A DNA stretch of 64,000 nucleotides. Source: Candidatus Eiseniibacteriota bacterium (GTDB lineage: Bacteria; Eisenbacteria; RBG-16-71-46). The stretch is taken from contig OY970178.1 in NCBI GenBank assembly GCA_963707915.1, forward strand, positions 2,592,001-2,656,000, written 5' to 3'. The notes beneath the pieces are model-generated. The model had not been told where the DNA came from. It did no database searches and saw only the letters and a program-made list of their open reading frames with translations. Below are positions 12,929 through 56,312 of this stretch, in pieces (the stretch's first letter is position 1; every line of letters begins with the position of its first letter). Made by a program: the position numbers and the translations under genes.

Positions 12929-15016
12929 CTACTTCTCCCTGGGCTTCTTCTCCGCGGCGGCGGCCTTCGCCGCCTCGTCGGCCTCGATCCGTGCCCATTC
13001 GGAGCCGTGCTCGTGCCGCAGTTGCTCCTCGCTGATGAGCCCCGTCACCCAGGACCAGTTCATCGGGTAGACGTCGGGGTTCAGGATGTTCTGGTAGAGG
13101 TGCCAGATCAGGATGGCGAGGAACGCCAGCCAGGCCTCGTAGTAGTGCACCAGCGTGGAGAGATCGAGGACCCACTTGGGCATCCACTGCAGCGAATGGT
13201 TCGCGAACCACAGCAGGAGGCCCGTGACCGTCATCACGATCGTGCCCCAGACCAGGGCCCAGTACTCCGCCTTCTCGATGTAGTTGAAGCGGTCGAAGGC
13301 GGGCGGCTCGTGCCGCAACCCCACCAGGTACAGGACGTTGCCCCAGGCCTCGCGCACGTCGCGGAGCGACGGCAGCAGCGCCAGGATCAACCCGCTGCCC
13401 CGCCGGGTGAACAGGTAGACGACGTGGCCGAGGGAGGTCACGATCATGACGACCGCGGCGATCCGGTGGATGACGCTGCGCCAGGCGAACCCCGCCTCCA
13501 GGTGCGCCAGCCACGCGAACAGCCAGGACTCGGGGAACTTCAGGGCGAAACCGGTCCAGACCAGGGTGAAGAAGCTGACCATCAGCAGGACGTGCTGCAG
13601 CCGCTCGATCGGGACGCTGCGGACGTACCAGCGGCCGTGGGAGCGCTCGGGGGCCGGCTCGCCCCGGTAGACCCGGTAGTGGCGGCGACTCTTGCGGATG
13701 AAGTCGAGCGCCTGGTGCACGAACATGCCACCGCACACCCCGAAGATGAGCCACAGGTAGATCAGCCGGGTGTAGTAGAGGATCGGGCTCGAATGCGTGG
13801 CGAGCTGGACGTGCACCTTCCCGAGCGTGGCCCACTTGTCCGCCCCGGCGTGGCACTTTCCGCAGGTCTTTCCCAGCTGCGCCGGGCTCACCGCCGAGCG
13901 CGGGTCGCTCGACGGCAGGATTTCGTGGAAACCGTGACAGGAAGCGCAGTTAGCCACCGCCTTCGATCCGCCGCGAGACGCCAGGCCGTGGAAGGAATCA
14001 CGATATGTCGTGAGTCTTCCGGCCGGAAGACCGTACGTCTCGCGGATGCCCTGGGCCTCGTGGCAGCGCGAGCAGGTGCTGTTCACCTGGGAGGCCATGA
14101 CCGGCGAGGAGGCGTCGCCGGGGCCGCGAATGACGTGCTCGCCGTGGCAGTCGGTGCAGTTGGGCGCCTTGGTGACGCCGCGGCGCAAGGCCTGTCCGTG
14201 GATGCCGGTCTCGAAGGCGGCGAATTCCTTGGTATGGCAGCGGCCGCAGGTGTGCGGGACGTTGGTGCGGTAGATGGACGACGTGGGGTCGTTGGCCCGT
14301 CTCAGGTCGTGGCTTTCGTGGCAGTCGCTGCAGGTCGCCGCCCGTGGGTCCTTCGACTTCCCGTGCACGCTCTGGGTGTAGAGCGCGTAGGCCTCGGGGA
14401 TGGTGATCCGGCGCCGGGTCATGAGTGCGCGGTTGGCGTGGCAGCGGGCGCAGGTGTGCGGCAGGTTGGCCCGGTAGACCGGCGAGGCCGGGTCGGTGTG
14501 CGGGCGGATCGAGTGGAATGGCCCGTGGCAGTCCTGGCAGGTGGAGGCCTCGGGGTCGCCGCGCGCCGGCGCGGTGCCGTGGACGCTGGTGCGGTACTGC
14601 TCGGTCACGCGCAGGTGGCAGCCGGCGCAGTCGTCGGTTCCCCGCCGCGTGGGCCGGCGTACCTGGTGGCCCTTGCCGTGGCAGCCCAGGCAGCCCGCCT
14701 CGCGCGGGCCGGCGGCCTGCCGGTGGGCGCTGCCCGCGATCGCGGCGGCGGCGTCCTGGTGGCACGCGCCGCAGCGGACCTGCGGCAGCGTGGGGGCGTG
14801 GGGCAGCTCCGTCATGCCCCTGTGGCAGGCCACGCACGCCAGCCGTCCATGCGGGGAGATCTTGAGCCGTGCGAGATCCACGTACGCCGTGCCGCCGCTG
14901 CTGCGTTCGAGCGATGGTTCGGAGTGGCAGTTCATGCACAGGTCGTTGCTCAGGGGCTCCGCCAGCGTCGGCAGGGCGGCGAGGACGGCCAGCAGCGCGG
15001 CCGCCAGCAAGCTCAT
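12929..15016 (-). CDS. Multiheme cytochrome c (13 CxxCH) fused to a C-terminal cytochrome b membrane domain (CbcL-like)
   Basis: Signal peptide MSLLAAALLAVLAALPTLA; 13 CxxCH; TM domain with QH, IHR, RFNYIEKAEYWALVWG, VHYYEA, WH. Confidence 0.85.
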   Translation of the reverse strand: MSLLAAALLAVLAALPTLAEPLSNDLCMNCHSEPSLERSSGGTAYVDLARLKISPHGRLACVACHRGMTELPHAPTLPQVRCGACHQDAAAAIAGSAHRQAAGPREAGCLGCHGKGHQVRRPTRRGTDDCAGCHLRVTEQYRTSVHGTAPARGDPEASTCQDCHGPFHSIRPHTDPASPVYRANLPHTCARCHANRALMTRRRITIPEAYALYTQSVHGKSKDPRAATCSDCHESHDLRRANDPTSSIYRTNVPHTCGRCHTKEFAAFETGIHGQALRRGVTKAPNCTDCHGEHVIRGPGDASSPVMASQVNSTCSRCHEAQGIRETYGLPAGRLTTYRDSFHGLASRGGSKAVANCASCHGFHEILPSSDPRSAVSPAQLGKTCGKCHAGADKWATLGKVHVQLATHSSPILYYTRLIYLWLIFGVCGGMFVHQALDFIRKSRRHYRVYRGEPAPERSHGRWYVRSVPIERLQHVLLMVSFFTLVWTGFALKFPESWLFAWLAHLEAGFAWRSVIHRIAAVVMIVTSLGHVVYLFTRRGSGLILALLPSLRDVREAWGNVLYLVGLRHEPPAFDRFNYIEKAEYWALVWGTIVMTVTGLLLWFANHSLQWMPKWVLDLSTLVHYYEAWLAFLAILIWHLYQNILNPDVYPMNWSWVTGLISEEQLRHEHGSEWARIEADEAAKAAAAEKKPREK

Positions 15017-15249
15017 CCAGGCCCGGGGCAGTCGCGCGCGCTCCGGGACTCCTCCAAGCGGGGCCGAAAACCGGGAATGGACTCGAGTCACGCCGGTATA
15101 TCTCCGGGAAGGGGACGGCCGGACCTCGCTGCCCCGGAGCCGGAGACCGCGGAAGAGGTCCGCGGGCAAGGCGTTCGAGCGACGAAGCCGTAGGTTGGCA
15201 ACAGACGGGGGCATGGTACCACGGGAGGCCTTGCTATCGGGACGACAAT

Positions 15250-15265
15250 TCAGTAAAACTACTGA
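15250..15265. promoter_or_regulatory. AT-rich palindrome TCAGTA-N4-TACTGA between divergent cytochrome genes
   Basis: Perfect 6-bp inverted repeat near the centre of the 470-bp divergent intergenic region. Confidence 0.45.
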
Positions 15266-15486
15266 CGTCTGTGGCCGGTCGGGCAAGGCAGGGTATCGCC
15301 CCCGGATCGGCCAGCGCAAGGAATCGAGCGAAGCTGCGGCGCCCGGAGGTTCCCGGGTCCCGCGGACGCGACCTCGGTCCTCCATGCGGAAGTCGGTTAC
15401 TCTGCGAGACGAGTCTCGTGGATCGCACACGACGCCTCGGCCTCGCGTTCCCAGGCAGGCCGTCACCTTCAATACCGGAGGGACAG

Positions 15487-16029
15487 ATGATCAAGAGGAT
15501 CCTCGCGTTGGTCGTGATGGGGGTGCTGGCGGCGAGCGTCGCGGCGCAGGCCGCGGACGCGCCGAAGAACGATTACGTCGGCGCGAGCCCGAAGGCATGC
15601 ATGTGCCACTTCAAGGAGTTCAAGGCGTGGTCGACGACCCCGCACGCGCACGCCCTCGAGGGCCTGAAGGCCACCACTCCCGAGCAGCTGAAGAAGATGA
15701 ACGAGATCCTCAAGTCCGCGGTCAAGGACCATCCCGAGACCGACGCGGCGTGCGTGGGCTGCCACGTGACCGGCTACAAGCAGGGCGGCTACCCGGCGGC
15801 CGATTCGATCAAGACCGCAGCGCTGGCGCACGTGGGCTGCGAGGTCTGCCACGGCCCCGCCAAGAACCACCTCGCGGTGCCGGCCAGCGACAAGGCGGGC
15901 CGGAAGGCCTCCATGCTGATCCCGACCGCCGAGACCTGCAAGAAGTGCCACACGGCGGAGATCTCGCCCAAGTTCGATTTCGCCGTGATGAGCAAGAAGG
16001 TGCATCCCATCGCCGCAGCGGCGAAGTAA
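15487..16029 (+). CDS. Periplasmic c554-like tetraheme cytochrome (3 CxxCH + 1 CxCH)
   Basis: RBS GGAGGG; signal peptide; YVG...CMCH...W...HAHA, CVGCHVTG, VGCEVCHGPA..H, CKKCH. Confidence 0.85.
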   Translation: MIKRILALVVMGVLAASVAAQAADAPKNDYVGASPKACMCHFKEFKAWSTTPHAHALEGLKATTPEQLKKMNEILKSAVKDHPETDAACVGCHVTGYKQGGYPAADSIKTAALAHVGCEVCHGPAKNHLAVPASDKAGRKASMLIPTAETCKKCHTAEISPKFDFAVMSKKVHPIAAAAK

Positions 16030-16050
16030 GCGATCCGAAGCCCAGCGACG

Positions 16051-18891
16051 ATGAAGGACAGCGCGGGTCGGCCGGCGGTTCGCAGGCCGGCCCGCGTTTC
16101 GCATGCCGGGCTCGTGGCGCTGGCGGCGGCGTTGTTCGCCGGCGCGCTGCTCCACGCGGCCTCGTGGGCGGCGCCCGAGGCGCCCAGGCCGCTCCCCGGC
16201 GCCGACGCTTGCGAGGGTTGCCACGAGGCCGGTCCGCCGCTCGCGAAGCGTGACGCGGATACGCCGCCACGCTTCGACGCCGCGGGGCTGCGCGCCTCGC
16301 CGCACGCGGCGCTGACCTGCACCGCCTGCCACGCGGACCTCGAGGGCAAGGACTTCCCGCACGAGGCGAAGCCGGCGCCGGTGCGCTGCGGCGGCTGCCA
16401 CGCGGCCGAGCAGCGCCAGTACGGCGAGAGCCTGCACGGCCAGGCCGCCTCGCGCGGGGAGAAGCTCGCGCCCTCGTGCAAGGAGTGCCACGGACGGCAC
16501 GCCGTCCTGCCGCGCAGCGACCCGCGCTCGCCCACCAACACGGTCAACGTCCCGGCGCTGTGCGGACGCTGCCACCACGAAGGCTCGCCGGTCCAGCTCA
16601 CCTACCACATCCCGCAGGACTCGATCCTCGCCAACTACTCCGAGTCCATGCACGGCGAGGGGCTGTTCAAGAAGGGGCTCCTGACGACGGCGGTGTGCAC
16701 CTCGTGCCACACCGCGCACCACGTCCTGCCGCACACCGACCCGCGCTCGAGCATCGCCCGGCGCAACGTGGTCGCCACCTGCACGCAGTGCCACGTGCGC
16801 ATCGAGCAGGTGCACCGCAAGATCATCAACGGCGTGCTGTGGGAGAACCGCCCCAACGACATCCCCGCCTGCGTGGACTGCCACCAGCCGCACAAGGCAC
16901 GCCGGGTCTTCTACACGCAGGGCATGGCCGACGCCGATTGCCAGTCGTGCCACGGCCGGCGCGCGCTCAAGGCGCAGGACGGCCGCTCGATGTTCGTGGA
17001 CCCGGCCGAGCTGCAGGGCTCCCGCCACGCCCGGATCGCCTGCGCGCAGTGCCACAGCGAGGCGCAGCCCTCGCACGCCCGGCCCTGCTCGACGATCACG
17101 CGCCGGGTGGACTGCTCGGTCTGCCACGCCGAGGTGGTGGACACCTACCGGAAGAGCACCCACGGGCAGCTGGCCGCCAAGGGCAGCCCCGACGCCCCGG
17201 GATGCCGCGACTGCCACGGCACGCACGGCATCCAGGGGCACCTGCAGTCGGACGCGCCGACCTACGCGCGCAACGTCCCGGCGCTGTGCGGGCGCTGCCA
17301 CCTGAGCGGCAAGAAGGCGCAAGTGCGCTATCGCGGGCCGGAGCGCCGGGTGGTGGAGTCCTACGTCGAGAGCATCCACGGCAAGGGGCTGCTCGAGAGC
17401 GGTCTCACCGTGACCGCGACCTGCGTGGACTGCCATACCACCCACGGCGAGCTGCCGCACACCGACCCGGCGTCCAGCGTCAACCCGGCGAACGTGGCGA
17501 AGACCTGCGCGAACTGCCACCGGGGGATCTACGAGCTCTACACGGCCAGCGTGCACTCGCCCTCGGTGACGAAGTCCAAGCGGCCGCTGCCCACCTGCTC
17601 GGACTGCCACTCGGCCCACACCATCAACCGCACCGACCGGCAGGACTTCAAGTTCGCGATCATGAGCCAGTGCGGCAAGTGCCACCGGGAGCTGGCGGAG
17701 ACCTACTTCGAGACCTACCACGGCAAGGTGTCGCGGCTCGGCTACCTCAAGACCGCGAAGTGCTACGACTGCCACGGCGCCCACGACATCCAGCCCAACT
17801 GGGATCCACGCTCGCACCTGTCACGGCAGAACATCGTGAAGACCTGCGCCGGGTGCCACCCCGGCTCGAACCGGCGCTTCGCCGGCTACCTGACCCACGC
17901 CACCCACCACGAGCCGCACAAGTACCCGGCGCTGTTCTTCGCCTTCTGGGGCATGACCGGGCTGCTGGTGGGCACCTTCGGCTTCTTCGGCCTCCACACC
18001 CTCGCCTGGCTGCCGCGCTCGCTCGCGTACCGGCGCGAGCTCGCGAAGACGCACGCCGGGGAGAGCGGGCTCCACGTGCGGCGCTTCCCGCCGCTCTACC
18101 GCAACCTGCACCTGATGGTGATCGTCTCCTTCCTCGGTCTGGCGCTCACCGGCATGACGCTCAAGTTCTCCTACTCGACCTGGGCCTACGTGCTGGCGCG
18201 CGCGCTCGGCGGCTTCGAGGCGGCGGGCTTCATCCACCGGGTCTGCGCGGGGATCACCTTCGCCTACTTCCTGCTGCACGTGCGCGACATGGTCCGGCGC
18301 AAGACGAAGTCCGGCGCGTCCTGGCGGACGTTCGTCGCCGGCGCGAGCGGCATGCTGCCCGGCCCCCGGGACCTCCAGGAATTCTGGCAGTCGATGAAGT
18401 GGTTCGCGGGCCGCGGCCCGCGGCCGCAGTACGGGCGCTGGACCTACTGGGAGAAGTTCGACTACTTCGCGGTGTTCTGGGGCGTGGCCATGATCGGCTC
18501 GACCGGTCTGGTGCTGTGGTTCCCGACCTTCTTCACCCGCTTCCTGCCCGGCATCTTCATCAACCTGGCGACCATCATCCACAGCGACGAGGCGCTGCTC
18601 GCGGTGGGCTTCATCTTCACCGTGCACTTCTTCAACACGCACTTCCGGCCCGAGAAGTTCCCCATGGACACGGTGATTTTCACCGGCACGGTGCCGCTGG
18701 AGGAGTTCAAGGCGGACCGGCCGCGCGAGTACGAGGAACTGCAGGCGAGCGGCGAGCTGGAGTCCCGCATCGAGCCCGCGCCCGCGCCGCGCACGGTGCG
18801 CGCCTGGCGCATCTTCGGCTTCATCGCGCTGTCGGTCGGGATCCTGATGGTGCTGCTCATCCTCTACGCCGCGATCTTCGGCTACCGCTAG
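16051..18891 (+). CDS. Multiheme cytochrome c (19 CxxCH) fused to a C-terminal cytochrome b membrane domain (CbcL-like)
   Basis: 19 CxxCH; TM domain with LHLMVIVSF, IHR, GRWTYWEKFDYFAVFWG, IHSDEALLA, VHFFNTHFRPEKFPMD. Confidence 0.9.
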   Translation: MKDSAGRPAVRRPARVSHAGLVALAAALFAGALLHAASWAAPEAPRPLPGADACEGCHEAGPPLAKRDADTPPRFDAAGLRASPHAALTCTACHADLEGKDFPHEAKPAPVRCGGCHAAEQRQYGESLHGQAASRGEKLAPSCKECHGRHAVLPRSDPRSPTNTVNVPALCGRCHHEGSPVQLTYHIPQDSILANYSESMHGEGLFKKGLLTTAVCTSCHTAHHVLPHTDPRSSIARRNVVATCTQCHVRIEQVHRKIINGVLWENRPNDIPACVDCHQPHKARRVFYTQGMADADCQSCHGRRALKAQDGRSMFVDPAELQGSRHARIACAQCHSEAQPSHARPCSTITRRVDCSVCHAEVVDTYRKSTHGQLAAKGSPDAPGCRDCHGTHGIQGHLQSDAPTYARNVPALCGRCHLSGKKAQVRYRGPERRVVESYVESIHGKGLLESGLTVTATCVDCHTTHGELPHTDPASSVNPANVAKTCANCHRGIYELYTASVHSPSVTKSKRPLPTCSDCHSAHTINRTDRQDFKFAIMSQCGKCHRELAETYFETYHGKVSRLGYLKTAKCYDCHGAHDIQPNWDPRSHLSRQNIVKTCAGCHPGSNRRFAGYLTHATHHEPHKYPALFFAFWGMTGLLVGTFGFFGLHTLAWLPRSLAYRRELAKTHAGESGLHVRRFPPLYRNLHLMVIVSFLGLALTGMTLKFSYSTWAYVLARALGGFEAAGFIHRVCAGITFAYFLLHVRDMVRRKTKSGASWRTFVAGASGMLPGPRDLQEFWQSMKWFAGRGPRPQYGRWTYWEKFDYFAVFWGVAMIGSTGLVLWFPTFFTRFLPGIFINLATIIHSDEALLAVGFIFTVHFFNTHFRPEKFPMDTVIFTGTVPLEEFKADRPREYEELQASGELESRIEPAPAPRTVRAWRIFGFIALSVGILMVLLILYAAIFGYR

Positions 18892-18960
18892 GCGGTCCGG
18901 CCCGGGCTCCCCGCCGCGCGGCCGACCGGATCGCTCGCGCGCGGGGAACCGCCCGAAGGT

Positions 18961-19308
18961 CTACGCCACCGCCCGTCCCGCGTGGAGGTGCGCCAGCGCC
19001 TCGGTCACGCTGGTGAAGAGCGGCAGCGCGCCGGAGAGGTGGGTGACGCCGAGCAGCCAGCGCTGGGGGCGGTCGGCACCGCACAGCGCGACGCCCCCGC
19101 CGTTCGCCGAGGCGAGCTTCTGTGCCCGGGCGAGCAGGCCCAGGCAGTGCGCGGTCAGCACGCGCGCGTGGCTGAGGTCCACCACCACGCGGCGGCCCTG
19201 GCCGGCCAGCGCGATGAGCTCGCGTTCCAGTTCGTCGCAGGCGGCCCCTTCGAGGAAGTTCCCGCTCGGTTGGAGCACCACCAGCTCGTCAAACGCGTGT
19301 GAAGTCAT
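18961..19308 (-). CDS. STAS-domain (anti-anti-sigma-like) protein
   Basis: 115 aa; VVVDLS...LGLL...GGVALCG...LLGVT..LPLF..EAL pattern. Confidence 0.75.
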   Translation of the reverse strand: MTSHAFDELVVLQPSGNFLEGAACDELERELIALAGQGRRVVVDLSHARVLTAHCLGLLARAQKLASANGGGVALCGADRPQRWLLGVTHLSGALPLFTSVTEALAHLHAGRAVA

Positions 19309-19539
19309 GTCCGGCGTCCTTTCTCGGACCGGCTGGTCGCTCCGGCCTCATCTCCTCTGACGGCGGGCCGGTCCGGAAGGTTGCACCCGGGCGACCAGCG
19401 CGCCCGGGACCGGGGGCGAACGCGGCGCCGTTTTCGCTGGACGCGGGCACTCCCGCCGCGTAGCCTGCGGTCTGCCGTGTCCGCACGCTCGGGGAGGCCG
19501 GCCCCCGAGGCTGGGCAGCACCCTGCGAGGGCACCCCTC

Positions 19540-19971
19540 ATGAAACGCCGCACCTTCCTCGACGCGGTCATCGCCGCGGCCGGAGCCGCCCTGGGGGCCT
19601 TCGTGCTCTACCCGGTCGCGCGCTACCTCGTACCCCCGAAGGCCCCCGAGGACACCACGCGCCGGGTCGTCGCCGCCAAGCAGGACGAAGTGGCCCCGGG
19701 TGGCTTCAAGATCTTCCCCTTCGGCGGCGAGCCCGGCATCCTGATCCGCGGCAAGGACGGCGGTTACCGCGCCCTCTCCGCGGTCTGCACGCACCTGGGG
19801 TGCACCGTCCAGCTCCGCCCCGACGGCCAGTCCATCTGGTGCGCCTGCCACAACGGCCTCTACGACCTCGAGGGACGCAACATCTCCGGGCCGCCGCCGC
19901 GGCCGCTCGAGTCCTACGTCGTGCACGTCGTCGGCGGGGACGTCGTGGTCGAGAAGGCGAAGGGCGCATGA
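19540..19971 (+). CDS. Rieske [2Fe-2S] subunit of Rieske/cytochrome b complex 1
   Basis: Tat-like MKRRTFL + TM; CTHLGC and CACHNGLY boxes; GPPPRPL. Confidence 0.93.
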
Positions 19972-21041
19972 GCCTGAACGACTGGCTGCGGGAACGGCTC
20001 GGCCTGGAGGCGCTCGATCACGTGATCGAGCAGAAGCGCGTGCCCGTCCACCGTCATTCGTTCTGGTACTACTGGGGCGGGATGACGCTGTTCCTCTTCG
20101 GGGTCCAGGTGGTGACCGGCATCCTGCTGGTCCTCTACTACCGGGCGAGCGCCGACGAGGCCTACGAGAGCGTCCGCTTCCTGATGACGCAGGTGTCGTT
20201 CGGCTGGCTCATCCGCTCGATCCACTCCTGGTCCGCGAACCTGATGGTGGGCGCGGCCATGATCCACATGTTCAGCGCCTTCATGCTCAAGGCCTACCGC
20301 CGGCCGCGCGAGGCGACCTGGCTCACCGGCATGGCGCTCTTCGTGCTGTGCCTGGCCTTCGGCTTCAGCGGCTACCTGCTGCCGTGGAACCAGCTGGCGT
20401 TCTTCGCCACCAAGGTGGGCACGGACATCATGGGGAGCGTGCCGCTGGTCGGCCCCTTCCTCGCGCGACTGCTGCGCGGCGGCGACCAGATCACCGGCGG
20501 AACGCTCACGCGGTTCTTCGGCTTCCACGTGGCCATCCTGCCGCTGTGCATGACGGCGCTGCTGGGCGTCCACCTGTTCCTGGTGCAGTGGCACGGCATG
20601 AGCGTGCCGCCCGGCCTCGAGCCGCCCGCGGCCGCGCCGAAGAAGGAGATGAAGTTCGTCCCCGACTTCCTGCTGCGTGACCTGGTGGGCTGGCTCGCGG
20701 CACTGGGCGCGCTCGCCCTGCTGGCGGCGCTGTTCCCCTGGGAGCTGGGGCTCAAGGCCGACCCGTACGCGTTCGCGCCCGCCGGCATCAAGCCCGAGTG
20801 GTACTTCGGCTACATGTTCCAGACCCTGCGCATGATCCCTTCGAAGGTGCTCGGGGTCGAGGGCGAGCTGCTGGGCATCGTGGGCTTCGGGCTGGGCGCC
20901 CTGGTCTGGGCGCTGGTCCCGTTCCTCGACTCGCCCGACGGCCGCGGCCCGCGGGCGCGCGCCTGGCGGGTGATCGGCGTGCTGGCGATGCTCTACGTGG
21001 TCGTGTTCACCTTGCTGGTCTACCGCGGAGGCCCGTCTTGA
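19968..21041 (+). CDS. Cytochrome b subunit of Rieske/cytochrome b complex 1 (canonical)
   Basis: All four heme His present (IHSW-...-IH; FHV-...-VH), GYLLPW, PEWY motif; ATGA overlap with the Rieske gene. Confidence 0.93.
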
Positions 21042-22273
21042 GATCCCTGCGCCGCTGCCTGGTCCTGGCGGGCGCGCTGCTGCTGGCGGCGGCGCCCGTG
21101 CGCGCCGCGGTGGACAGCTGCGTCGAGTGCCACCGCGGGCTCGACGACCCGCGCCTGAAGGCCCCGGTGGCGGGCTTCCTGCGCGACATCCACGCCGAGC
21201 GCGGCCTCACCTGTGCCGCCTGCCACGGCGGCGATCCCGCGGACCCCGACCCTTCGGCGATGGACCCCGACAAGGGGTTCAAGGGCGTCCCCGCCCGGGC
21301 GCAGGTCGCGGCGATGTGTGCCTCGTGCCACGCCGACGCGGCCCTGATGAAGCGCTACAACCCGCGGCCCTACGTGTTCTCGATGGCCGAGTGGCAGACC
21401 AGCGTGCACGCGAAGCTCGCGGCGCGGGGTGACACCAAGGTCGCCACCTGCACGAGCTGCCACGGCGTGCACGGCATCCGCCCGCCGAAGGACCCCGCCT
21501 CGCCGGTCTTCAAGACCAACGTCCCGCGGACCTGCGCGAAGTGCCACAACCCCGGGTACATGAAGGGCCACGCCATCCCCACCAACCAGTTCGCGCTCTA
21601 CTCGAAGAGCGTGCACGGCGTGGCGCTGCTCGAGAAGGGCGACGTCTCCGCGCCGGCCTGCAACGATTGCCACGGCAACCACGGCGCGGCCCCGCCGGGC
21701 CTGAAGGACGTGGCGATGGTGTGCGGCACCTGCCACGGCCGCGAGGCCGAGCTGTTCGAAGGCAGCCGGATGAAGGCGGGCCTCGACGCGATGGGCAAGC
21801 CCGGTTGCGTGACCTGCCACGGCAACCACGGGGTGCAGCACCCGACCGACGCGATGCTCTCCGCGGCGCCGGGCGGCAAGTGCGCGGGCTGCCACCAGCC
21901 CGGCTCGGTCTGCGAGCAGGGCACGGACGCGATCGTGACCAGCTTCCGCGGCCTGCGCGGCGCGGTCGCTTCCGCCGACAGCCTGCTCAAGGTGGCCGAG
22001 GTGCGCGGCATGGAGACCGGCCCGGGCCGCGAGAACCTGAAGGCGGCCCAGGACGCGCTGGTCGGCGTGCGCGCCGGGCTGCACAGCTTCGACCCGAAGC
22101 AGATCGGGGCCGTCCTCGCCGAAGGGGCGGCGCTCAGCCGCAAGGCGGCGGACTACGGGCGCGCGGCGCTGCGCGACTGGCACAACCGCCGTCTCGGCAT
22201 GGTGCTCTCGCTGGTCGTCATCCTGGTGCTGATCGGGCTGCTGGTCGCGAGGATCCGCCGGATGGAGTCGTAG
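21038..22273 (+). CDS. Nonaheme cytochrome c with C-terminal membrane anchor (complex 1)
   Basis: TTGA overlap with cytochrome b; signal peptide; 9 CxxCH; helical stalk and C-terminal TM. Confidence 0.88.
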
Positions 22274-22296
22274 GAGCGGAACGCGGGCAAAGCCGA

Positions 22297-22330
22297 CGGG
22301 CCCGGAGGCGCTGGATCGCCTCCGGGCCCG
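22297..22330. terminator. Hairpin between convergent operons (possible bidirectional terminator)
   Basis: CGGGCCCGGAGGCG-ctggat-CGCCTCCGGGCCCG perfect 14-bp stem; no strong U-tract. Confidence 0.55.
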
Positions 22331-22351
22331 GTGCGTTTCCGCGTGGCGCCG

Positions 22352-23560
22352 CTACGCCGGCAGGACCGGCGTCTCCTCGGCCCGCTTCGCCGGCAGCAGC
22401 CGGACCAGCACGAACAGGATGAGGAAGGGCGCGATCAGCAGCCCGAGCGCGGTGACCAGCCCCTCCAGCCCGGTCATCTCCATCTTGTAGGCCATCAGCC
22501 CGCGGAAGCTCTTGGAGAAGAGCTGCCCGCCGATGACCACGTTCCAGCGCGTGCTGAAGATGCCGAGCTGGATCAGGATCGCCGAGGCGAAGTAGAGGAG
22601 CTTCCTCAGGTCCGGGTTCACCCGCCGGGCGCGCGTCGCCACCATCAACGCCAAGGGAACGAGCATGCCGAGCAGGACCTGGAGGATGACCAGGTTCATG
22701 AAGAGCTTCACCGAGATGAGCTGGGCGAGGATCTTCACCGATTCCTCGCTCTGGTAGAGGCGATGGATGAAGTCGAGCGCCTCGAGCGAGAAGTCCACGA
22801 CCACCGCGTAGAAGAGGTACGACGCCACCTTGTCCAGGCACTTCATGTCCAGGACCTGGTTCCGCAGGGAGGTGATCACCATGTAGAGGAGCAGCACCAG
22901 CGCGATGCCGGAGACGATGGCCGACATGAGGAAGACGATGGGCATGAGCACGCTGCTCCACCACGGATTGGCCTTGATCGAGCCGAAGATGAAACCCACG
23001 TAGCCGTGGAGCAGGAAGGCCGACGGGATGCCGACGATGGTGATCGTGCGGACCGCCCGGCGGTCGAAGGCGACCGCGCGCTCGCTGATGTCGGTCGAGA
23101 ACAGCGACAGCGCCCGGTAGACCCAGCGGAGCAGGCCGGTGTGCTCGCGGCCCCACACCACCAGGTCGCGCCGGTACTCGAACCAGATCTCCAGCAGCAG
23201 GATGCCCATCAGGTACCAGGCGTAGACGAACCCGAACATGGCCATCGCCGAGGACAGGTGCGGCGCGAGGAAGATCTCGAAGGAGCGCTCCATGTGCCCG
23301 AGGTGCAGGAGCAGCGGGAAGGGCGCCACCAGCAGGAAGGACAGCGCGGTCAGGAGGGCGAGCCGGTAGGTGGGCTGGACCTCCTTCACGTTGAAGACCT
23401 TGACCAGCGAGGCCAGGATGAACGCGCCGGCCACGAGCCCGGTGAGGTACGGGTAGACCACGATCAGGATCGACCAGTGGATCTCGATCTCGTTCGGGTA
23501 GATGTACCCGATGACCTGCTGCAGCAGCTCCGCCAGGTTGGGCGGCACCTGGGCGATCAT
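22352..23560 (-). CDS. NrfD/PsrC family quinone-interacting membrane subunit
   Basis: WSILIVVYPYLTGLVAG, LLHLGH..R, SSAM, LHGYVGFIFG...PWW, RWNVVIGGQ. Confidence 0.9.
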   Translation of the reverse strand: MIAQVPPNLAELLQQVIGYIYPNEIEIHWSILIVVYPYLTGLVAGAFILASLVKVFNVKEVQPTYRLALLTALSFLLVAPFPLLLHLGHMERSFEIFLAPHLSSAMAMFGFVYAWYLMGILLLEIWFEYRRDLVVWGREHTGLLRWVYRALSLFSTDISERAVAFDRRAVRTITIVGIPSAFLLHGYVGFIFGSIKANPWWSSVLMPIVFLMSAIVSGIALVLLLYMVITSLRNQVLDMKCLDKVASYLFYAVVVDFSLEALDFIHRLYQSEESVKILAQLISVKLFMNLVILQVLLGMLVPLALMVATRARRVNPDLRKLLYFASAILIQLGIFSTRWNVVIGGQLFSKSFRGLMAYKMEMTGLEGLVTALGLLIAPFLILFVLVRLLPAKRAEETPVLPA

Positions 23561-24324
23561 CGCACCTCTCCGTCGAGCTGGGCGTAGAAGACCTTGGGCT
23601 CGGTGTTGAGCGCGGGCTTCAGCACGTTGATCTTGTTCATGCGCTGGAAGCGCACCAGGCGGCTCGCCTTGCTCCGGAGGTCACCGAAGACCCGCGCCTG
23701 GGTCGGGCAGACCTCGACGCAGGCCGGCAGCAGCCCCTTGACCACGCGGTGGTAGCAGAAGGTGCACTTGTCCGCGGTGTTCGTGCGGTGGTTGAAGAAG
23801 CGCGCCCCGTAGGGACAGGCCTGGATGCAGTAGCGGCAGCCGATGCAGCGCGTGCTGTCCACCAGCACCACGCCGTCCGCGGTCGTGAAGGTGGCGCCGA
23901 CCGGGCACACCTGCACGCAGGGCGCATGCGCGCAGTGGTTGCAGAGCTTCGGCACGAAGAAGGAGCGCAGCACCTCGCGCTCGTCCTGCGGCTTCCGTTC
24001 CCCGCGCGGGTCCACGCTGATGCACTGGACCTCGGTCTCGCCGTTCGACTTCACCGTGTAGCGTTCGACCCAGGTGCGGAAGAAGAACGGCTCCGGCGGC
24101 ACGTCGTTCTCGACCTTGCACGCCTCGGCGCAGCGGTTGCAGCCGATGCACTTCTCGACCTCGATCCCCATGCCGTACCAGTGATCCTTCGGCTCGTAGC
24201 CGGGGGTCGGCGACCCGGCGGCGGCGGTCCCGGCGGCGGCCGCGGCCGAGTGCGCCAGGGCCTGCAGCACGGCGGCGGCCGGGATGAAGGCGATGGCCCC
24301 CTTGAGGAACTCGCGCTTGTTCAT
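23557..24324 (-). CDS. NrfC/PsrB family 4x[4Fe-4S] protein
   Basis: Tat-like MNKREFLKG; CIGCNRCAEAC, CNHCAHAPCVQVCP, CIGCRYCIQACP, KCTFC...PACVEVCP. Confidence 0.92.
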   Translation of the reverse strand: MNKREFLKGAIAFIPAAAVLQALAHSAAAAAGTAAAGSPTPGYEPKDHWYGMGIEVEKCIGCNRCAEACKVENDVPPEPFFFRTWVERYTVKSNGETEVQCISVDPRGERKPQDEREVLRSFFVPKLCNHCAHAPCVQVCPVGATFTTADGVVLVDSTRCIGCRYCIQACPYGARFFNHRTNTADKCTFCYHRVVKGLLPACVEVCPTQARVFGDLRSKASRLVRFQRMNKINVLKPALNTEPKVFYAQLDGEVR

Positions 24325-25055
24325 GGCCGTCCTTCCGGCAGGTGGGGGTAGTGGCACTGCCAGCACAGGTAGCCGCCGCCGTGGGTGGCGAGCTCGACCT
24401 TGGGCGCGTCCGGGTTGGCCGTGCCGCTGGCGTGGCACTGCCCGCAGAACTCGCGGGTCTGGGGCTTGCTGGGCAGGGCGCTGCGCGGCGCCGTGCGGTG
24501 CTGCTCGCTCGCGGTGTGGCAGGTCACGCAGGGCAGCAGCGCGTGCGCCGAGAGGGCCACGGTCCGGGCGATCTGCGCGTGGCAGGCCGAGCACTCCCGC
24601 GGGGTCTGCGGCGGCACCGGGTCGTGCGGATTGTGGCAGGTGATGCAGGGCTTGAGGGGGTTGTGGGCCTCGGGGTTGATCTGCGGGAAGCCCGTGGGCC
24701 GCGCCGCGTCGTAGGCGTGGCAGACCGGGCAGAACTTGCGGTCGCGGGGCGCGAAGGGCTTGACCGACATCGGGTCCTCCGCGTGCTTCGCGGCGGGCCC
24801 GTGGCAGGTCTCGCAGGCGAGCCCCTTGTGGTAGCCCTGGGCCTTCTTCTCCCACTCCTCCGCGTGGCAGTCCTGGCACGCGGAGGCGCCGGCGAAGTTG
24901 ACCGGCCGGGCGACCTCGCGCCGCACGGTGGCGGACTGGTGGACCGCGGCGGAGAAGTAGTCGCGCGGGATCAGCACGAACCGCACGAGCAGCGCCAGCG
25001 CCACGATGAGCGCGAGCATCGCGGCGATGCGCGTGACCTGCTCGGGGACCTTCAA
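24321..25055 (-). CDS. Membrane-anchored octaheme cytochrome c
   Basis: TTG start after GGAGG; N-terminal TM; 8 CxxCH. Confidence 0.88.
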   Translation of the reverse strand: MKVPEQVTRIAAMLALIVALALLVRFVLIPRDYFSAAVHQSATVRREVARPVNFAGASACQDCHAEEWEKKAQGYHKGLACETCHGPAAKHAEDPMSVKPFAPRDRKFCPVCHAYDAARPTGFPQINPEAHNPLKPCITCHNPHDPVPPQTPRECSACHAQIARTVALSAHALLPCVTCHTASEQHRTAPRSALPSKPQTREFCGQCHASGTANPDAPKVELATHGGGYLCWQCHYPHLPEGRP

Positions 25056-25190
25056 GCGTCCTCCCGGTTCTGCGGTGCCGCGGCCACGGCCTGACTCGAG
25101 TGGGGCATCCTAGCAGGGAAGCGCCCGTCAGGGGAGCGCAAAACCCGCGATCCGGCTACTACCATCGGCTACCGGCTCCGGCGGCGGTAC

Positions 25191-27008
25191 CTACTCCTGA
25201 TGGCACTGCGCACAGACGGCCTTCGCGGGCCGCAGTTGCCCGGCGGCCGGGTCGTGGCAGGTCTTGCACTCGAGATCCATGCCGAGGTGGGCCTGGTGCG
25301 AGAACTCGCCGCGGAAGCTCTTCACGCTGTGCGTCTTCACGTCCGCATGGCACTGGAGGCACGAGCCGCCCGCGTCGGCGGTCTTGCGATGATGGCAGGG
25401 CACGCAGCCGGCCGGTCCGAAGCGCACGACCTCGCCGGCCGCGCGTTCCTCGTGCGTCCGGTGGCAGGCGTCGCACTCGAGCTTCGCCCGGAGCAGGTGC
25501 GGCCCGTGGTCGAAGGCCTTGCCCTGCCAGGCCCCGCGCTGCGCCTCGACGCCGGTGTGGCACAGCATGCAGCGTCCCGAGCTGGCGCCGGTGCGCCGCC
25601 AGGGCAGCTCGAGCGGGGCCAGCCCCTTCGCGCGGCGCGCCTGGTTCATCAGCTCGTGGGAGCGGTCGAGCAGGGCGTAGGCGTACGCCATGTTGTGCAC
25701 CGCCTTGCCCTGCGAGACCAGCAGGAAGTCGTGCCGCGCGTCCTGCCACGACGGCGGCGGCTGGAGGCCCATCGCGCCGTTGGTCGCCTCGAGCTGGCGC
25801 TGCAGCGCGGCGACCCGCGCGGCGGAGGCGCTCTGCCAGGACTTGAAGATCGCATCGTACCCCGGGCCGTGGCAGGCCATGCAGGAGACCCCGTCGGCGC
25901 GCTGGATGACCGGCTCGAGCGGGCCCTTCGCGGCCTGGGTCGCGACGGCCTCGCCGTTGTGGCAGCCCTGGCAGGTGACGCCCACCACGAACATCGGTCC
26001 CGGCTGGTCGGGCACGCCGCGCCCGCCGGTGCCGGCGTAGAGGCTCTGCTGCGCGTCGTGGCCCGCGCCGTGGCACGGCCCGCAACTGCCCGCGTCCACG
26101 GCGCCCGCGCCGTGCGCATCCGTGCGCACATCCCTCGGCGCGGTGCCGTGCGCGATCACCAGGTGACAGTTCGTGCAGTCCACCTTGTGCTTCGAGACGT
26201 GCCAGTCGTGCAGGTACTCGGTGTCGCGGTAGCGCGCGAGCCGCTCGGGCTGGTTGTGGCAGGTGAGGCAGCGGATCTGCGGCACGTCGCCGGTGCCGCG
26301 GATCACCCCCGCGTGGCAGGCGCTGCACGAGGTGCCCAGGCGCGCGACCTCGCCGTGGTCGAACGGCGTGCCGGCGGCGGTGGTGACCCGCCCCGGAACG
26401 GCGTGACAGAGCCGGCAGCGCGCGGTGCCCTGGTCGGGCGTCTGCCCCTTGAAGTGGCACAGCGCGCAGGTCGTCGGCGTGACGGCGATGTGCGAGCCGA
26501 CCATGACCTGCGAATGGCACGAGGTGCAGCGCAGCCGGAAGCCCTTGCGGCTCTCGGTGAGGTGCGGGGTGTGGTCGAAGATCACGCCCTGGAAGTCGAC
26601 CTTGCCCTCGAGCAGCCGGCGCTCGTGGCAGCGCAGGCAGTTGGCGTCGTCCACCTCGGCCCAGGGCTTGGTGCCGTAGGTGGCGGTGAAGTACTTCACC
26701 ACCATCGACAGCGCCTCGTACTTCTTGCGCAGCTCGGCGCCGATCCCCGGCGAGATGTGGCACTCGACGCAGGCGATGTGGCCGTGCTTCGACGCCTTCC
26801 ACGAGGCGTAGTAGGGCTTCATGATGTGGCAGGTGCCGCAGAACTGCGGCGTCGAGGTGCCGAGCATCGCGACCAGGGTGAGCACGACGAACAGGCCGAG
26901 GGCGAGCCCGGCGGTCAGCGTGATGCCGCGCAGGCTCCGCCAGCCTCCCTGGCCGCCGGGCCAGCGGCCGCGGGGCTGGCCGGGACCCGGCCCCGGGACG
27001 CCGGTCAT
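25191..27008 (-). CDS. NapC/NirT-like N-terminus extended to an 18-heme cytochrome c
   Basis: N-terminal TM, TSTPQFCGTCHIM (CxxCHxM), W..S.H..IACVECH, CLRCH; 18 CxxCH in total. Confidence 0.88.
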   Translation of the reverse strand: MTGVPGPGPGQPRGRWPGGQGGWRSLRGITLTAGLALGLFVVLTLVAMLGTSTPQFCGTCHIMKPYYASWKASKHGHIACVECHISPGIGAELRKKYEALSMVVKYFTATYGTKPWAEVDDANCLRCHERRLLEGKVDFQGVIFDHTPHLTESRKGFRLRCTSCHSQVMVGSHIAVTPTTCALCHFKGQTPDQGTARCRLCHAVPGRVTTAAGTPFDHGEVARLGTSCSACHAGVIRGTGDVPQIRCLTCHNQPERLARYRDTEYLHDWHVSKHKVDCTNCHLVIAHGTAPRDVRTDAHGAGAVDAGSCGPCHGAGHDAQQSLYAGTGGRGVPDQPGPMFVVGVTCQGCHNGEAVATQAAKGPLEPVIQRADGVSCMACHGPGYDAIFKSWQSASAARVAALQRQLEATNGAMGLQPPPSWQDARHDFLLVSQGKAVHNMAYAYALLDRSHELMNQARRAKGLAPLELPWRRTGASSGRCMLCHTGVEAQRGAWQGKAFDHGPHLLRAKLECDACHRTHEERAAGEVVRFGPAGCVPCHHRKTADAGGSCLQCHADVKTHSVKSFRGEFSHQAHLGMDLECKTCHDPAAGQLRPAKAVCAQCHQE

Positions 27009-28229
27009 CTAGCGGTTCCTCGCATCCTGGTCGCGGAAGCGCCTGAGCACGAACAGCGTCAGCAGCACGTAGAACCAGAACGCGATGAGCACGTAGCGGT
27101 GCTGGCCCAGGTTGGCGAGCTTGCCCTCGAGTTCCTTCTGCACCTCCTGGCCCACCGCGCGGGCGCGGGTGGTGAAACCGGCCACGACCTCGGGCCGCAC
27201 GGAGTGCGCGGCCGGCAGCGCCTCGCGCAGGTAGGTGCGGGCCTCCTCGATGCGAGCGTGGTAGTCCTCGGTCTGGAGGGGGATGGCGTCGGCTTTCGCC
27301 ACCAGCGCCGCGGCGCGGTCCACCTCGTCCGCCGCGGTGGTGTAGTCGGTCCAGACCCTGCGGCCCAGGTCGAGCCGGCGCGGGTCGCCGGCGTGGCACC
27401 CGACGCACGACGAGGCCAGCCGCTCGGGCCGCGCCGGCTGTACGCCGTGCGCCTCGTGGCAGGACGCGCACTCGGGACGCTTGCCGCCGCGTGCCACGGC
27501 GTGCCCGCCCGCGGTGTAGTAGCGCCGCTCGGCGGTGTGGCACTGTCCGCACACCTTGTCGATGTCGCCGATGTTGGGCGGGTTGGCGCCGTGCACGCCG
27601 TGGCAGGACACGCAACTCGGCGCGCGCAGGTTGCCCTGCTCCAGCAGGGCCTTCGCGTGGACGCTCGACAGGTACGGCTTCAGCACGTCCGGCCGCCCGG
27701 CCTTCCCCGGCGCGCCGCCGCCGTGACAGCGCCCGCAGGTCCGCGGGATGTTGAGCTGGTAGACGCTGCTCGCCGGGTCGCGGGGCGCGAGGATCTCGTG
27801 GGCGCCGTGGCAGTCCGAGCAGACCGCGACCTGGGCGTCGCCCCGGGCCAGCCGCTGGCCGTGGCCCGAGGTCTGGTAGAGCGCGTACTGGTCCACGGGC
27901 AGGTTGTAGGGGCGCATGCGCGACTCGTCGGAGTGGCAGGTGGCGCAGAGCGCCGGGATGTCCCGGCGCGCGGGGCGCCCCCGGAAGCCGGCACCGTGCG
28001 CGGCCCCGGCGACGAGGCTGCGGTCGTCGCCGCCGTGGCACGAGACGCAGCGCACGCCCTCCAGGGCGTGGCTGCTCCTCTCGAACTGGACGCGCTCGGC
28101 CGGATGGCAGACGCCGCAGCGGCCCGAAGCGGGGGCGACGGCCGCCGGCGCCGCCGGCGCCGGGACCGCCAGGGCGACGGCAGGCGGGGCCGCGGCCGCG
28201 AGGAGCAGGAACGCGAGCAGGGTCTTCAT
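27009..28229 (-). CDS. Nonaheme cytochrome c with C-terminal membrane anchor (complex 2)
   Basis: Signal peptide; 9 CxxCH; same layout as 21038..22273 (CHGGD, GF.G.P.R, PRTC..CH, AP.C..CHG.HGA.PP). Confidence 0.88.
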   Translation of the reverse strand: MKTLLAFLLLAAAAPPAVALAVPAPAAPAAVAPASGRCGVCHPAERVQFERSSHALEGVRCVSCHGGDDRSLVAGAAHGAGFRGRPARRDIPALCATCHSDESRMRPYNLPVDQYALYQTSGHGQRLARGDAQVAVCSDCHGAHEILAPRDPASSVYQLNIPRTCGRCHGGGAPGKAGRPDVLKPYLSSVHAKALLEQGNLRAPSCVSCHGVHGANPPNIGDIDKVCGQCHTAERRYYTAGGHAVARGGKRPECASCHEAHGVQPARPERLASSCVGCHAGDPRRLDLGRRVWTDYTTAADEVDRAAALVAKADAIPLQTEDYHARIEEARTYLREALPAAHSVRPEVVAGFTTRARAVGQEVQKELEGKLANLGQHRYVLIAFWFYVLLTLFVLRRFRDQDARNR

Positions 28230-28233
28230 CGCC

Positions 28234-29364
28234 CTACCTCCGCTCGAGCAGCGCGCCGAGCACGCTGAGGGCGAGCCACACGAGGAGCACGGCGCCGCCC
28301 GCCAGCCGGATGCGGCGCCGGCGGGTGGGGGTCTCGTCGCCCCGCAGCCACAGCGGCAGGAGCAGCACCGCGAAGGCCGCGGCCAGCAGCACGAACCCGC
28401 TCAGCCAGGGCAGGGGCAGGCGCTGGAGCAGGACGTAGGGCGCCAGCATGTACCACGGCGGGCGCACCCCGCCGGGCGTGACGTAGGGATCGGCCACCCC
28501 GTGGAAGCGCAACGGCAGCAGCGTGGCCAGCGTCACGAGGATCGCGAACAGCCCGACCGTGAGCATGGCCATCGAGTAGAAGTGCTCGCGATAGCGGATC
28601 GGCCGCTCGTCGCGCGCCGCCCCGGTCCGGCTCAGGCCGACGCGCCGGAGCGTGGCGAACGTGAGGTACAGGAAGGCGGCGTAGAACCCCGGCAGCACCA
28701 TGACGTGCAGCACGTAGAAGCGGATCAGCACGTCCTCGTTCACGGTCCGGCCGCCGAGCAGGAAGGCCAGCACCGGCCCGGCGAGGGGGATCGCCCAGAC
28801 CACCTCGAGCCCGCGCACCGTGCTCCAGAAGCTGTGCGCGTCCCAGGTGAGGAGGCGCCCGGTGAAGTCCGACTGGACGACCACCCAGGTCATGGCCACC
28901 GCGCACCACCACAGCACCTCGCGGGGCGCGCGGTACAGCCCTTCCCAGAACAGCCGCAGCAGGCGCAGGACGATGATCGCCACCAGCAGCCACGAGCCCC
29001 ACGCGTGCACCTGGTGGATGAACCAGCCGCCCGGCAGGTCGCGCACGATGGTGCGCGTGCTCTCGAAGGCGGCCTCGGGCGTGGGCCGGTAGTAGTAGGC
29101 GAGCAGCACGCCGGTCACGAGTTGCAGGCCGAACAGGATGGCGGCGAGCAACCCCAGCACGCGGGCGCCGTGCGCGTACCGGGGCAGCGGCTCCGCGGCC
29201 ACGTCGTGCAGCACCTCGCGCACCGGTTTCCGCGTGTCCATCGGCGTGTAGATCAGCCCGAAGTGGGTGACGAAGGAGAAGATCTCGCTCAGGTTCACGC
29301 GCTGCTCGAGCCAGTCGACCCAGCCGCCGCGCGCGGGCGGACCCTGCTTGCCGGGCCCGTTCAT
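28234..29364 (-). CDS. Divergent cytochrome b subunit of Rieske/cytochrome b complex 2 (only two heme His, PPWY)
   Basis: QLVTGVLLAYYYRP, VHAWG, YRAPRE, TGRLLTWD, RFYVLHV, RPPWY; ATG at 29364 overlaps the Rieske stop. Confidence 0.88.
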   Translation of the reverse strand: MNGPGKQGPPARGGWVDWLEQRVNLSEIFSFVTHFGLIYTPMDTRKPVREVLHDVAAEPLPRYAHGARVLGLLAAILFGLQLVTGVLLAYYYRPTPEAAFESTRTIVRDLPGGWFIHQVHAWGSWLLVAIIVLRLLRLFWEGLYRAPREVLWWCAVAMTWVVVQSDFTGRLLTWDAHSFWSTVRGLEVVWAIPLAGPVLAFLLGGRTVNEDVLIRFYVLHVMVLPGFYAAFLYLTFATLRRVGLSRTGAARDERPIRYREHFYSMAMLTVGLFAILVTLATLLPLRFHGVADPYVTPGGVRPPWYMLAPYVLLQRLPLPWLSGFVLLAAAFAVLLLPLWLRGDETPTRRRRIRLAGGAVLLVWLALSVLGALLERR

Positions 29365-29825
29365 ACCTGGACGAAGATCTCGCCGGCGCGGACCGACACC
29401 GGGTAGCTGGGGAGCGGCCGGGGCGGCGGGCCGGCGAGCACGTTGCCCGAGAGGTCGAAGCGCCCGTCGTGGCAGGGACAGACCAGCGTCCGGCGTGCCG
29501 GCTCGTAGCCCAGGATGCAGCGCACGTGGGTGCACACCGCCGAGATGGCGAGCACGCGCGTGGCGTCGAGACGGACCACGTAGAAGGGCATCACCCCGTG
29601 ACGCACGAGACGGCCTTCGCCCACGCGGTAGTCGGCCAGCAGCCCGGCGCTCACGGTGCGCTCGGCGTCGCGCTTCTCGGGGGCCTTGAGGTAGGCGCCC
29701 ACCACGGCGGCGGCGCCGAGCCCCCAGAGGGCGAGGAACGCCTGGGACAGCACGGTGAGGAACCGGCGCCGGTCCGCGGAGGCGGACGCCGGCAGGTGGA
29801 TCGGACGGTCTTCAGGGATCGGCAT
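29361..29825 (-). CDS. Rieske [2Fe-2S] subunit of complex 2
   Basis: Tat DRRRFL + TM; CTHVRC and CPCHDGRF; GPPPRPL. Confidence 0.92.
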   Translation of the reverse strand: MPIPEDRPIHLPASASADRRRFLTVLSQAFLALWGLGAAAVVGAYLKAPEKRDAERTVSAGLLADYRVGEGRLVRHGVMPFYVVRLDATRVLAISAVCTHVRCILGYEPARRTLVCPCHDGRFDLSGNVLAGPPPRPLPSYPVSVRAGEIFVQV

Positions 29826-30065
29826 GGGATCTCCGACGGGGTCGGGGACGCACGTCGCGCGGGCGGGCTGCCGCACCCACTGGCCCGCGGCCGGCCAGTG
29901 CCACGCGCGTGGCGACAAGTCCAGCCGGCATCATAGCCCGTGACTGCCGCCCGGCCAATGCGCCTCGAGTCCCATACGCGGTCCGCCCGGGGCCGCCGTC
30001 GCCGGCCCCACGCCCCGCGGGATTCGCTCGACCTGCCGTCGCATTTGCGTTATGAAGTCCCCATC

Positions 30066-38162: not shown

Positions 38163-38454
38163 GTGGGGGCCCTCTGCGTGTCGCATGCCACGGCGCGCCG
38201 CGCCCAATGCGCGGCCCAGCCGGGCTCCGTCCCTCCAAGTCTCGGTCGGTCCGGCCGGAACCTGAAGAGCCCGCCTGCCGCCCCGGGGGAGGAGGGCTTC
38301 CCCGGCGGCCGGGCCGCCGGCGGTTCACCTCCCCGCGCCCCCTGTGCGAGAATGGCGCCTCGTCGGGCCGCAGCCCGGGAGCGCCGGCGCGCGGTTGCCC
38401 CACGGGGCGCGGGGGCCGCCGGCTCCCGCACCGATGCCCATCCAGGAGGTGGCG

Positions 38455-56308: not shown

Positions 56309-56312
56309 CGCC

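Follow-up and report, generated by a model that had tools for sequence, protein, structure and literature searches.

The Q cycle is the defining feature of Rieske/cytochrome b complexes; without heme bH and the inner quinone (Qi) site there is no transmembrane path and hence no Q cycle. Departures from the full set of heme ligands are described for engineered and for natural proteins. In the largest motif survey, the four heme histidines counted as invariable and sequences without them were discarded (PMC4122944). The closest functional model for the protein described here is a pair of laboratory mutants, the QiKO b6f complex (petB H202Q, without hemes bh and ci; PMC3112540) and bc1 H212N, which carry bL only, have no Qi site, keep a wild-type quinol-oxidizing (Qo) site and reach about 5% turnover. 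The b6f complex without bh and ci supports growth at about 5% of wild-type turnover, and its reduced bL is reoxidized by the Qo semiquinone in a ping-pong manner (PMC3112540).

Scattered natural cases of histidine loss are also in print. Cyanobacterial subfamily K (PMC5600118) shows a conserved loss of the second helix B histidine, which is replaced by Gln, Glu, Asn or Asp; its members are short and split, have lost the bn glycine and mostly have no subunit IV or operon of their own. Loss of one or both bH ligands is reported for a Pyrobaculum cytochrome b (PMC4122944) and for Planctopirus ADG66274.1 (PMC5600118 Fig. S1), which has the pattern H-Q-H-Q and keeps PEWY; both belong to clades other than the one described below. 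The Pyrobaculum protein and the Fig. S1 singletons are single rows with no Arg pattern and no multiheme operon described. The bc1 complex of Acidithiobacillus ferrooxidans, of a proteobacterial clade, carries PPWY in place of PEWY alongside all four histidines (PMC4122944; PMC5600118 Fig. S1). A different solution is found in the NapC/NirT/NrfH proteins and in Geobacter ImcH, which oxidize menaquinol electroneutrally on the outer side into multiheme cytochromes, the role proposed below for the variant, but do so with a c heme at the quinone site and with neither Rieske cluster nor cytochrome b.

The window analyzed here is a 64,000-nucleotide stretch of contig OY970178.1 of a Candidatus Eiseniibacteriota bacterium. 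It contains the following cytochrome genes (window coordinates, strand):

12929-15199, minus: multiheme c/cytochrome b561 fusion, 13 hemes
16051-18891, plus: multiheme c/cytochrome b561 fusion, 19 hemes
19543..22273, plus: canonical module of Rieske protein, four-His PEWY cytochrome b (19968..21041) and 9-heme cytochrome c
22352..25055, minus: 8-heme cytochrome c, 4Fe-4S protein and NrfD-family membrane protein
25191..27008, minus: 18-heme cytochrome c with NrfH/NapC-like N-terminal head (CxxCHxM, conserved Lys)
27009..28229, minus: 9-heme cytochrome c with signal peptide and C-terminal membrane anchor
28234..29364, minus: variant cytochrome b, 376 aa, of the fused b6 plus subunit IV type, seven membrane helices
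29361..29825, minus: partner Rieske protein with twin-arginine signal and boxes CTHVRC and CPCHDGRF, its stop overlapping the cytochrome b start

Together these form a 17-kb island (12929-29825) with at least five quinone-interacting modules and about 79 c-heme motifs, the modules being the two putatively CbcL-like c/b561 fusions, the canonical and variant Rieske/cytochrome b pairs, the NrfD module and the NrfH-headed 18-heme protein. A small c554-like cytochrome is also encoded within 12929..18891. The canonical and variant operons are separate and convergent.

The variant has the fold, the bL site and the Rieske-cytochrome b-cytochrome c gene order of canonical bc1/b6f complexes, including the module at 19543-22273, as well as the b6-type 15-residue spacing of the helix D histidine positions. 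It differs from them in lacking bH ligands, the Qi acid and CxGG and in having a rebuilt Qo site, and it adds an N-terminal insertion and the 18-heme, NrfH-headed subunit. Unlike QiKO and H212N it is natural and under selection, with changes in both Qo site and Rieske protein. It also falls outside subfamily K, being a fused protein of 376 aa with Arg at the lost position and with Gly71 kept in 71/74 relatives, and it shares PPWY with the Acidithiobacillus complex but not the four histidines. The residues on which these comparisons rest are as follows (all on the minus strand):

29230..29298: conserved, family-specific N-terminal insertion (about residues 23-45), predicted cytoplasmic-side helix
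29005..29007: His120, helix B bL ligand, kept
28963..28965: Arg134 (CGC) at the helix B bH ligand position, family-defining
28900..28902: Ala155 at the bH-pocket glycine (mitochondrial Gly116)
28855..28857: Arg170 for the Qo tyrosine (mitochondrial Tyr131)
28813..28815: Arg184 for mitochondrial Val145, cd1 helix of the Qo site
28705..28707: His220, helix D bL ligand, kept
28660..28662: Thr235 (ACG) at the helix D bH ligand position, a later, subclade-specific loss
28450..28461: PPWY Qo motif, residues 302-305

The reading frame (29364..28234, minus strand) yields an uninterrupted translation of 376 aa that exceeds the cut-offs of both PF00033 and PF00032 in a profile search, as expected of the cytochrome b/b6 protein family, and is 31% identical to the canonical paralog. 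The AlphaFold model (mean pLDDT 86) has seven membrane helices and an intact cytochrome b fold, and was matched by Foldseek to bc1 cytochrome b chains at a TM of about 0.7; the N-terminal insertion is modeled at a pLDDT of about 60-70. The register against the solved cytochrome b6 (2zt9) is gap-free, residues 120, 134, 220 and 235 corresponding to H86, H100, H187 and H202. H202 of b6 is the bh ligand knocked out in the engineered b6f complex (PMC3112540).

Homologs were gathered by a full HMMER scan and a genome scan that returned 47 loci, all 47 from metagenome assemblies. An alignment of 208 rows contained 125 four-His sequences and 74 with the helix B Arg, the latter constituting the family and including two identical pairs and two frameshifted fragments. 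A further set comprised the best 120 of 362 homologs, which are 63-92% identical to the variant. The bis-His bL site with its two glycines is present (H120, H220, G85 and G169): His120 is found in 74/74 and His220 in 73/74 family rows, both in 120/120 of the best 120 of 362 homologs, and the bL glycines are kept in 74/74 family rows. At the bH site stand Arg134, Thr235 and Ala155 instead. Among the best 120 of 362 homologs, Arg134 is present in 120/120, position 235 is Thr in 118 and Ser in 2, and Ala155 occurs in 117. Position 155 is Gly in 125/125 four-His rows, compared to Ala in 45 and Gly in 24 of the 74 family rows.

A first-pass annotation, made from the letters of the window, had proposed exactly these replacements of the second histidines of helices B and D, with the first histidine of each helix retained, and the alignments with the paralog and 2zt9 agree with it residue for residue (codons 28963-28965 and 28660-28662). 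Its reading that WLTG has become WWCA (at Ala155) and PEWY has become PPWY is likewise borne out against the paralog. No replacement ligand was evident: among the inner-side His, Met, Lys and Cys columns the sole family-specific candidate was His261, which was rejected because it also occurs in 38/125 four-His rows, and His34 was set aside as restricted to a subclade. Judging from sequence, the copy in the window very probably binds no bH and does not run a Q cycle on its own, as the first-pass annotation had suggested, and both conservation and the lack of a replacement ligand back that suggestion.

Both quinone sites depart from the canonical arrangement. On the inner side, the acid of the K-D/E motif, whose position corresponds by alignment to Asp228, is present in 0/74 family rows versus 102/125 four-His rows, and the CxGG associated with heme ci is replaced by RVLGL. 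On the outer side, where positions were assigned by alignment with mouse cytochrome b, Arg184 is found in 74/74 family versus 1/125 four-His rows. Tyr at the Tyr131 position occurs in 0/74 versus 101/125. Pro303 stands for Glu271, with Pro in 67/74 and an acid in 0/74 family rows, versus an acid in 103/125 four-His rows; in the best 120 of 362 homologs this position is Pro in 119 and Ala in 1. His117 replaces Arg80, ahead of the first ligand, in 64/74 family rows. The family still conserves P, W and Y in the Qo motif, and likewise the cd1 helix. The quinol-oxidizing site is rebuilt across the family. Mutants of Tyr131 are strongly impaired and those of Glu271 modestly so (PMC7908018). The loss of the PEWY glutamate is a weak sign by itself, given that the four-His Acidithiobacillus complex also carries PPWY and Glu mutants are modest; the invariant Arg184 and the lost Tyr131, which the first-pass annotation missed, are the stronger signs.

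The family is found in records titled Candidatus Eisenbacteria (the closest, 54-75%), Acidobacteriota (Blastocatellia, Thermoanaerobaculia and Polarisedimenticolia), Latescibacterota and Fischerbacteria, as well as in one Gemmatimonas and four 'Clostridia' records. Its pattern is H-R-H-x, where x is His in 37, Thr in 29, Asn in 3, Ser in 2 and another residue in 3 of the 74 rows. A tree was built with the diagnostic columns removed, the helix B Arg among them, 10 family rows omitted (identical, near-identical, frameshifted or containing X) and 20 of the 125 four-His rows kept as outgroup. The remaining 64 family rows and one further sequence, P0137, formed one clade with support of 100/99 versus the canonical paralogs; the branch had support of 92/95 without the long row P0254. 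The 26 H-R-H-T rows were monophyletic (100/100), and the tree demands at least 3 changes at position 235. By this topology the helix B His to Arg change is ancestral, the helix D histidine was lost later and at least three times, and only the subclade of the window copy lacks both bH histidines. That the helix D histidine became dispensable after the helix B loss is as expected if the heme had already gone. The first-pass annotation's view that exactly the bH pair was lost thus applies to this copy but not to the family, in which 37/74 rows keep the helix D His.

One counter-example is P0137, which has four histidines together with the family's Arg184 and N-terminal features and is nested inside the clade, P0254 being sister to it; P0137 may represent a reversion or a retained ancestral state. 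Among 150 representatives, one or both bH ligands were also missing from unrelated sequences (HFHL twice, HFHR, HIHF and HYHH; P0145, P0148, P0248, P0263 and P0224), and P0145 also carries PPWY, His117 and Arg170. The Fig. S1 text of PMC5600118 contained no row with Arg at the helix 2 position, and excerpts of PMC5317091 and PMC4683180 contained nothing on ligand loss. No description of an H-R-H-x family was found in the open literature searched. The H-R-H-x family is real, conserved and apparently undescribed.

Sequence error and decay were ruled out by the substitutions shared among homologs and by dN/dS. Substitutions common to hundreds of independent sequences are not errors, despite frameshifted genes elsewhere in the genome. 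For the closest pair, dN/dS was 0.19 for the variant versus 0.15 for the canonical paralog, and 12 other close variant pairs gave 0.05-0.38; with these NG86 ratios and a GC3 near 0.98, dS is underestimated, and the values of 0.29-0.61 for distant pairs are upper bounds. Conservation, purifying selection and the intact predicted fold all favor specialization over decay, as had been proposed from the sequence. A recent duplication of the neighboring canonical gene was excluded by the 31% identity and the separate clades. No sequencing run matched half or more of the query words, and the four runs aligned with the window all gave contigs of relatives. A contig about 90% alike from an RNA library, a type of library that can include DNA, spans 28240-29575. 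The frameshifted genes include the sole heme-copper oxidase subunit I match (G000 C1:1399300-1400573), which lies in five pieces in alternating frames that fit an assembly error or a pseudogene. The UPF0182 gene at 33696-36421 of the window is split into two frames near 35537, a further sign of assembly frameshifts.

The genes for Rieske protein, cytochrome b and the 9-heme and 18-heme cytochromes, in that order, directly adjoin or overlap. This four-gene order was present in 43/47 loci, the other 4 of which stop at a contig edge, and in 19/20 loci of a second, partly overlapping set, in which one locus was cut. The adjacent Rieske protein is predicted to be Tat-exported and has Cys2His2 ligands; all four cluster ligands are present in 66/68 rows, and the tip Gly after the first His box is replaced by Arg, His or Lys in 67/68, counts that include duplicate rows. 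The potential-raising Tyr is Phe in 66/68 variant rows versus Tyr in 16/17 canonical partners, and the potential-raising Ser is absent from both. The variant Rieske sequence suggests a lower potential. A low potential is not assured, since an anammox Rieske protein with Phe at the Tyr position, which keeps the Ser, has a potential of +335 mV (PMC12954380). In three genomes of one genus the second cluster His, which is the quinol-bonding His, is replaced by Asp (box II CPCD):

L042:12459-13157
L046:7299-7811
L106:7852-8550

These Rieske proteins are possibly Asp-ligated or cluster-free. All three loci belong to lone carriers, with the variant as the only cytochrome b match, and all four of their operon genes are under selection (operon dN/dS of 0.09-0.11 for L042/L106). 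Of all the findings, this combination argues most strongly, for this lineage at least, against a functional Qo site. The operon also encodes a membrane-anchored c-type acceptor, the 9-heme cytochrome, which is 35% identical to its counterpart in the canonical module. The 18-heme cytochrome has no counterpart there. Its head aligns with NrfH (2j7a) and carries CxxCHxM and invariant Lys95/Lys96 in 33/33 sequences; the position of NrfH Asp89 is not acidic, and the protein scores over the cut-off of PF03264 and below that of TIGR03153.

Within the phylum, 62 of 201 genomes were found to carry the variant (at least 40% identity). Orthologs of the canonical paralog, at an identity of 50% or more, were present in 40/62 carriers versus 18/139 non-carriers, in genomes that are related to one another, and the canonical module lay alongside the variant in 14/47 loci, on one strand and in a row in L070-L074 and L087. 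The variant was the sole PF00033 match in 17/61 other carriers, which are draft genomes, and in 10/37 of the carriers that are at least 90% complete. In a genome of the same genus, G120, the locus (L033) lies inside a 2.1-Mb contig without a canonical module. The variant does not need the canonical paralog. The suggestion that it could not run a Q cycle alone stands, but the paralog is not an obligatory partner. Multiheme c/b561 fusions occur in about 34/47 loci, and the 13-heme fusion was not found in 4/5 lone-carrier genomes tested, including those of L042, L046 and L106.

A DmsE/MtrA-type decaheme over the cut-off was present in 33/62 carriers versus 30/139 other genomes, which as kin are not independent. 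An MtrA-like gene was found in 9/27 loci with 7 kb of upstream sequence, and in L056, L061, L066 and L068 a decaheme and a porin-like gene lie directly upstream of the variant operon. All 4/4 decahemes tested pass TIGR03508; six porin candidates fall below the TIGR03509 cut-off, scoring 211-216 in 3, 119 in 1 and nothing in 2. In the source genome, 18 ORFs together hold 216 CxxCH motifs, and a menaquinone pathway gene is present; its decaheme scores below the cut-off, and no MtrB match was found in it. A heme-copper oxidase was not found in G120 (93% complete). A link to oxygen respiration was dropped because PF00115 occurs in 174/201 genomes and is uninformative.

The reading we favor, with a probability of roughly one half, is that the variant is the core of a non-electrogenic menaquinol:multiheme-cytochrome oxidoreductase that operates without a Q cycle and probably serves extracellular electron transfer. 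A stand-alone four-subunit complex of Rieske protein, bL-only cytochrome b, 9-heme c and 18-heme c would exchange electrons between menaquinone and periplasmic multiheme cytochromes, with flow possible in either direction. Menaquinol would still bind the rebuilt outer site and pass one electron to the Rieske cluster while the other is parked on bL, from where it could return via the semiquinone or via the bL-bL bridge to the twin site. Both electrons would end on c hemes and the two quinol protons would be released outside, with no charge crossing the membrane. With Arg184 in place and Tyr131 and Glu271 gone, the normally suppressed short circuit may become the main path, e.g. through a stabilized semiquinone. 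Dropping the transmembrane step would suit acceptors or donors near the menaquinone potential, e.g. the hemes of a porin-cytochrome conduit. That potential is -74 mV, from which a rough sum gives an acceptor above about +75 to +125 mV as the need of a Q cycle; multiheme conduits often lie below this threshold, which gives grounds for abandoning the cycle. For ImcH, activity spans -350 to -150 mV (bioRxiv 10.1101/2023.05.03.539133). By analogy, the family may be the natural counterpart of the engineered bH-knockout complexes, with the Qo site retuned for efficiency.

Several observations count against this reading. As sequence evidence, the Qo changes are as compatible with a dead site as with a retuned one, Arg184 in the pocket wall could block quinone, and the 18-heme subunit has an NrfH-like head of its own, so the operon need not use the Qo site; the engineered precedent is slow, P0137 nests in the family, and the source genome has no MtrB match and a decaheme below the cut-off. 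A doubtful though serious alternative is that the Qo site is dead too, with cytochrome b and Rieske protein serving as membrane scaffold and bL/2Fe-2S relay, and quinone chemistry left to the 18-heme NrfH-like head or the neighboring c/b561 fusions. It would accommodate the invariant Arg184, the absence of Tyr131 and Glu271, the His for Arg80, the bulky Rieske tip and the Rieske His to Asp change under continued selection, along with the CxxCHxM and paired Lys conserved in the 18-heme head and the frequency of the fusions. It sits poorly with the conserved P, W and Y and cd1 helix, and a pure scaffold is not obviously expected to keep bL and the Rieske cluster; nor does either substitute enzyme fit everywhere, as the Asp89 position of the 18-heme protein is not acidic and the 13-heme fusion was missing from most of the lone-carrier genomes tested.

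A heterodimer with the canonical cytochrome b, sharing the bL-bL bridge so that the partner's bH and Qi site complete a Q cycle, would explain the co-occurrence of the two orthologs, their modules lying together or in one row, and the homologous 9-heme c subunits, but the co-occurrence may mean no more than that both sit in a common cytochrome island, the tree does not place the two proteins as sisters, and their operons in the window are separate and convergent. In its obligate form it is disfavored by the lone carriers, G120 with its 2.1-Mb contig among them, and we regard it as improbable overall. There is a slight chance of bifurcation on the outer side, with one electron going from the Rieske cluster to the 9-heme c and the low-potential one from bL to the 18-heme c; the complex would then supply a low-potential periplasmic reductant for extracellular acceptors and not a proton gradient. 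The 18-heme subunit belongs to the variant operon alone and is adjacent in every case, its first hemes would by NrfH homology lie at the membrane surface, and the bL site is fully kept. The residues linked to bifurcation, Tyr131 and Glu271, are the very ones lost, however, bL lies deep in the dimer interface of known complexes, and a Rieske box that looks lower in potential leaves less driving force. It is very improbable that a second heme is held by unusual ligands, or that the gene is relaxed remnant DNA. On the bH side Gly71 (71/74), Arg137 (74/74) and Arg240 (73/74) are kept, half of the family retains the helix D His, and bc1 His-to-Lys mutants retain heme (PMC4807273); the window copy nevertheless lacks both histidines and carries Ala155, the sole inner-side candidate, His261, is shared with four-His rows, and strong selection speaks against a remnant.

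A multi-phylum clade that has dropped bH under selection shows that this enzyme can take on another role without the step that defines it, and points to an unrecognized inner-membrane hub for extracellular electron transfer. The family offers a natural test of how the short circuit from bL to the Qo semiquinone and back is gated, and of whether Arg for Val145, together with the missing Tyr131 and Glu271, turns bifurcation off. Where soil and sediment genomes carry a 'complex III' annotation, they may be assigned a proton translocation that is not performed.

Other features were observed around the variant operons. Two adjacent ORFs at 56309-61508 of the window have 20 and 23 CxxCH motifs and match Pfam c7/c3-type families only. 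A 42-heme cytochrome with paired CxxCH repeats is encoded at L110:11659-15147 (G000 C1:3109658-3113146), near genes for 6-, 10-, 9- and 6-heme proteins, and 42-heme proteins flank the variant operon in L062, L064, L067 and L108. A chemoreceptor with a Tll0287-like domain and one CxxCH (window 36471-38207), possibly a heme-based redox sensor, lies 7 kb from the cytochrome island. A Na+/H+ exchanger gene (window 29940-31418) is divergent from the variant operon and adjoins it also in L033, L054, L100 and L103.
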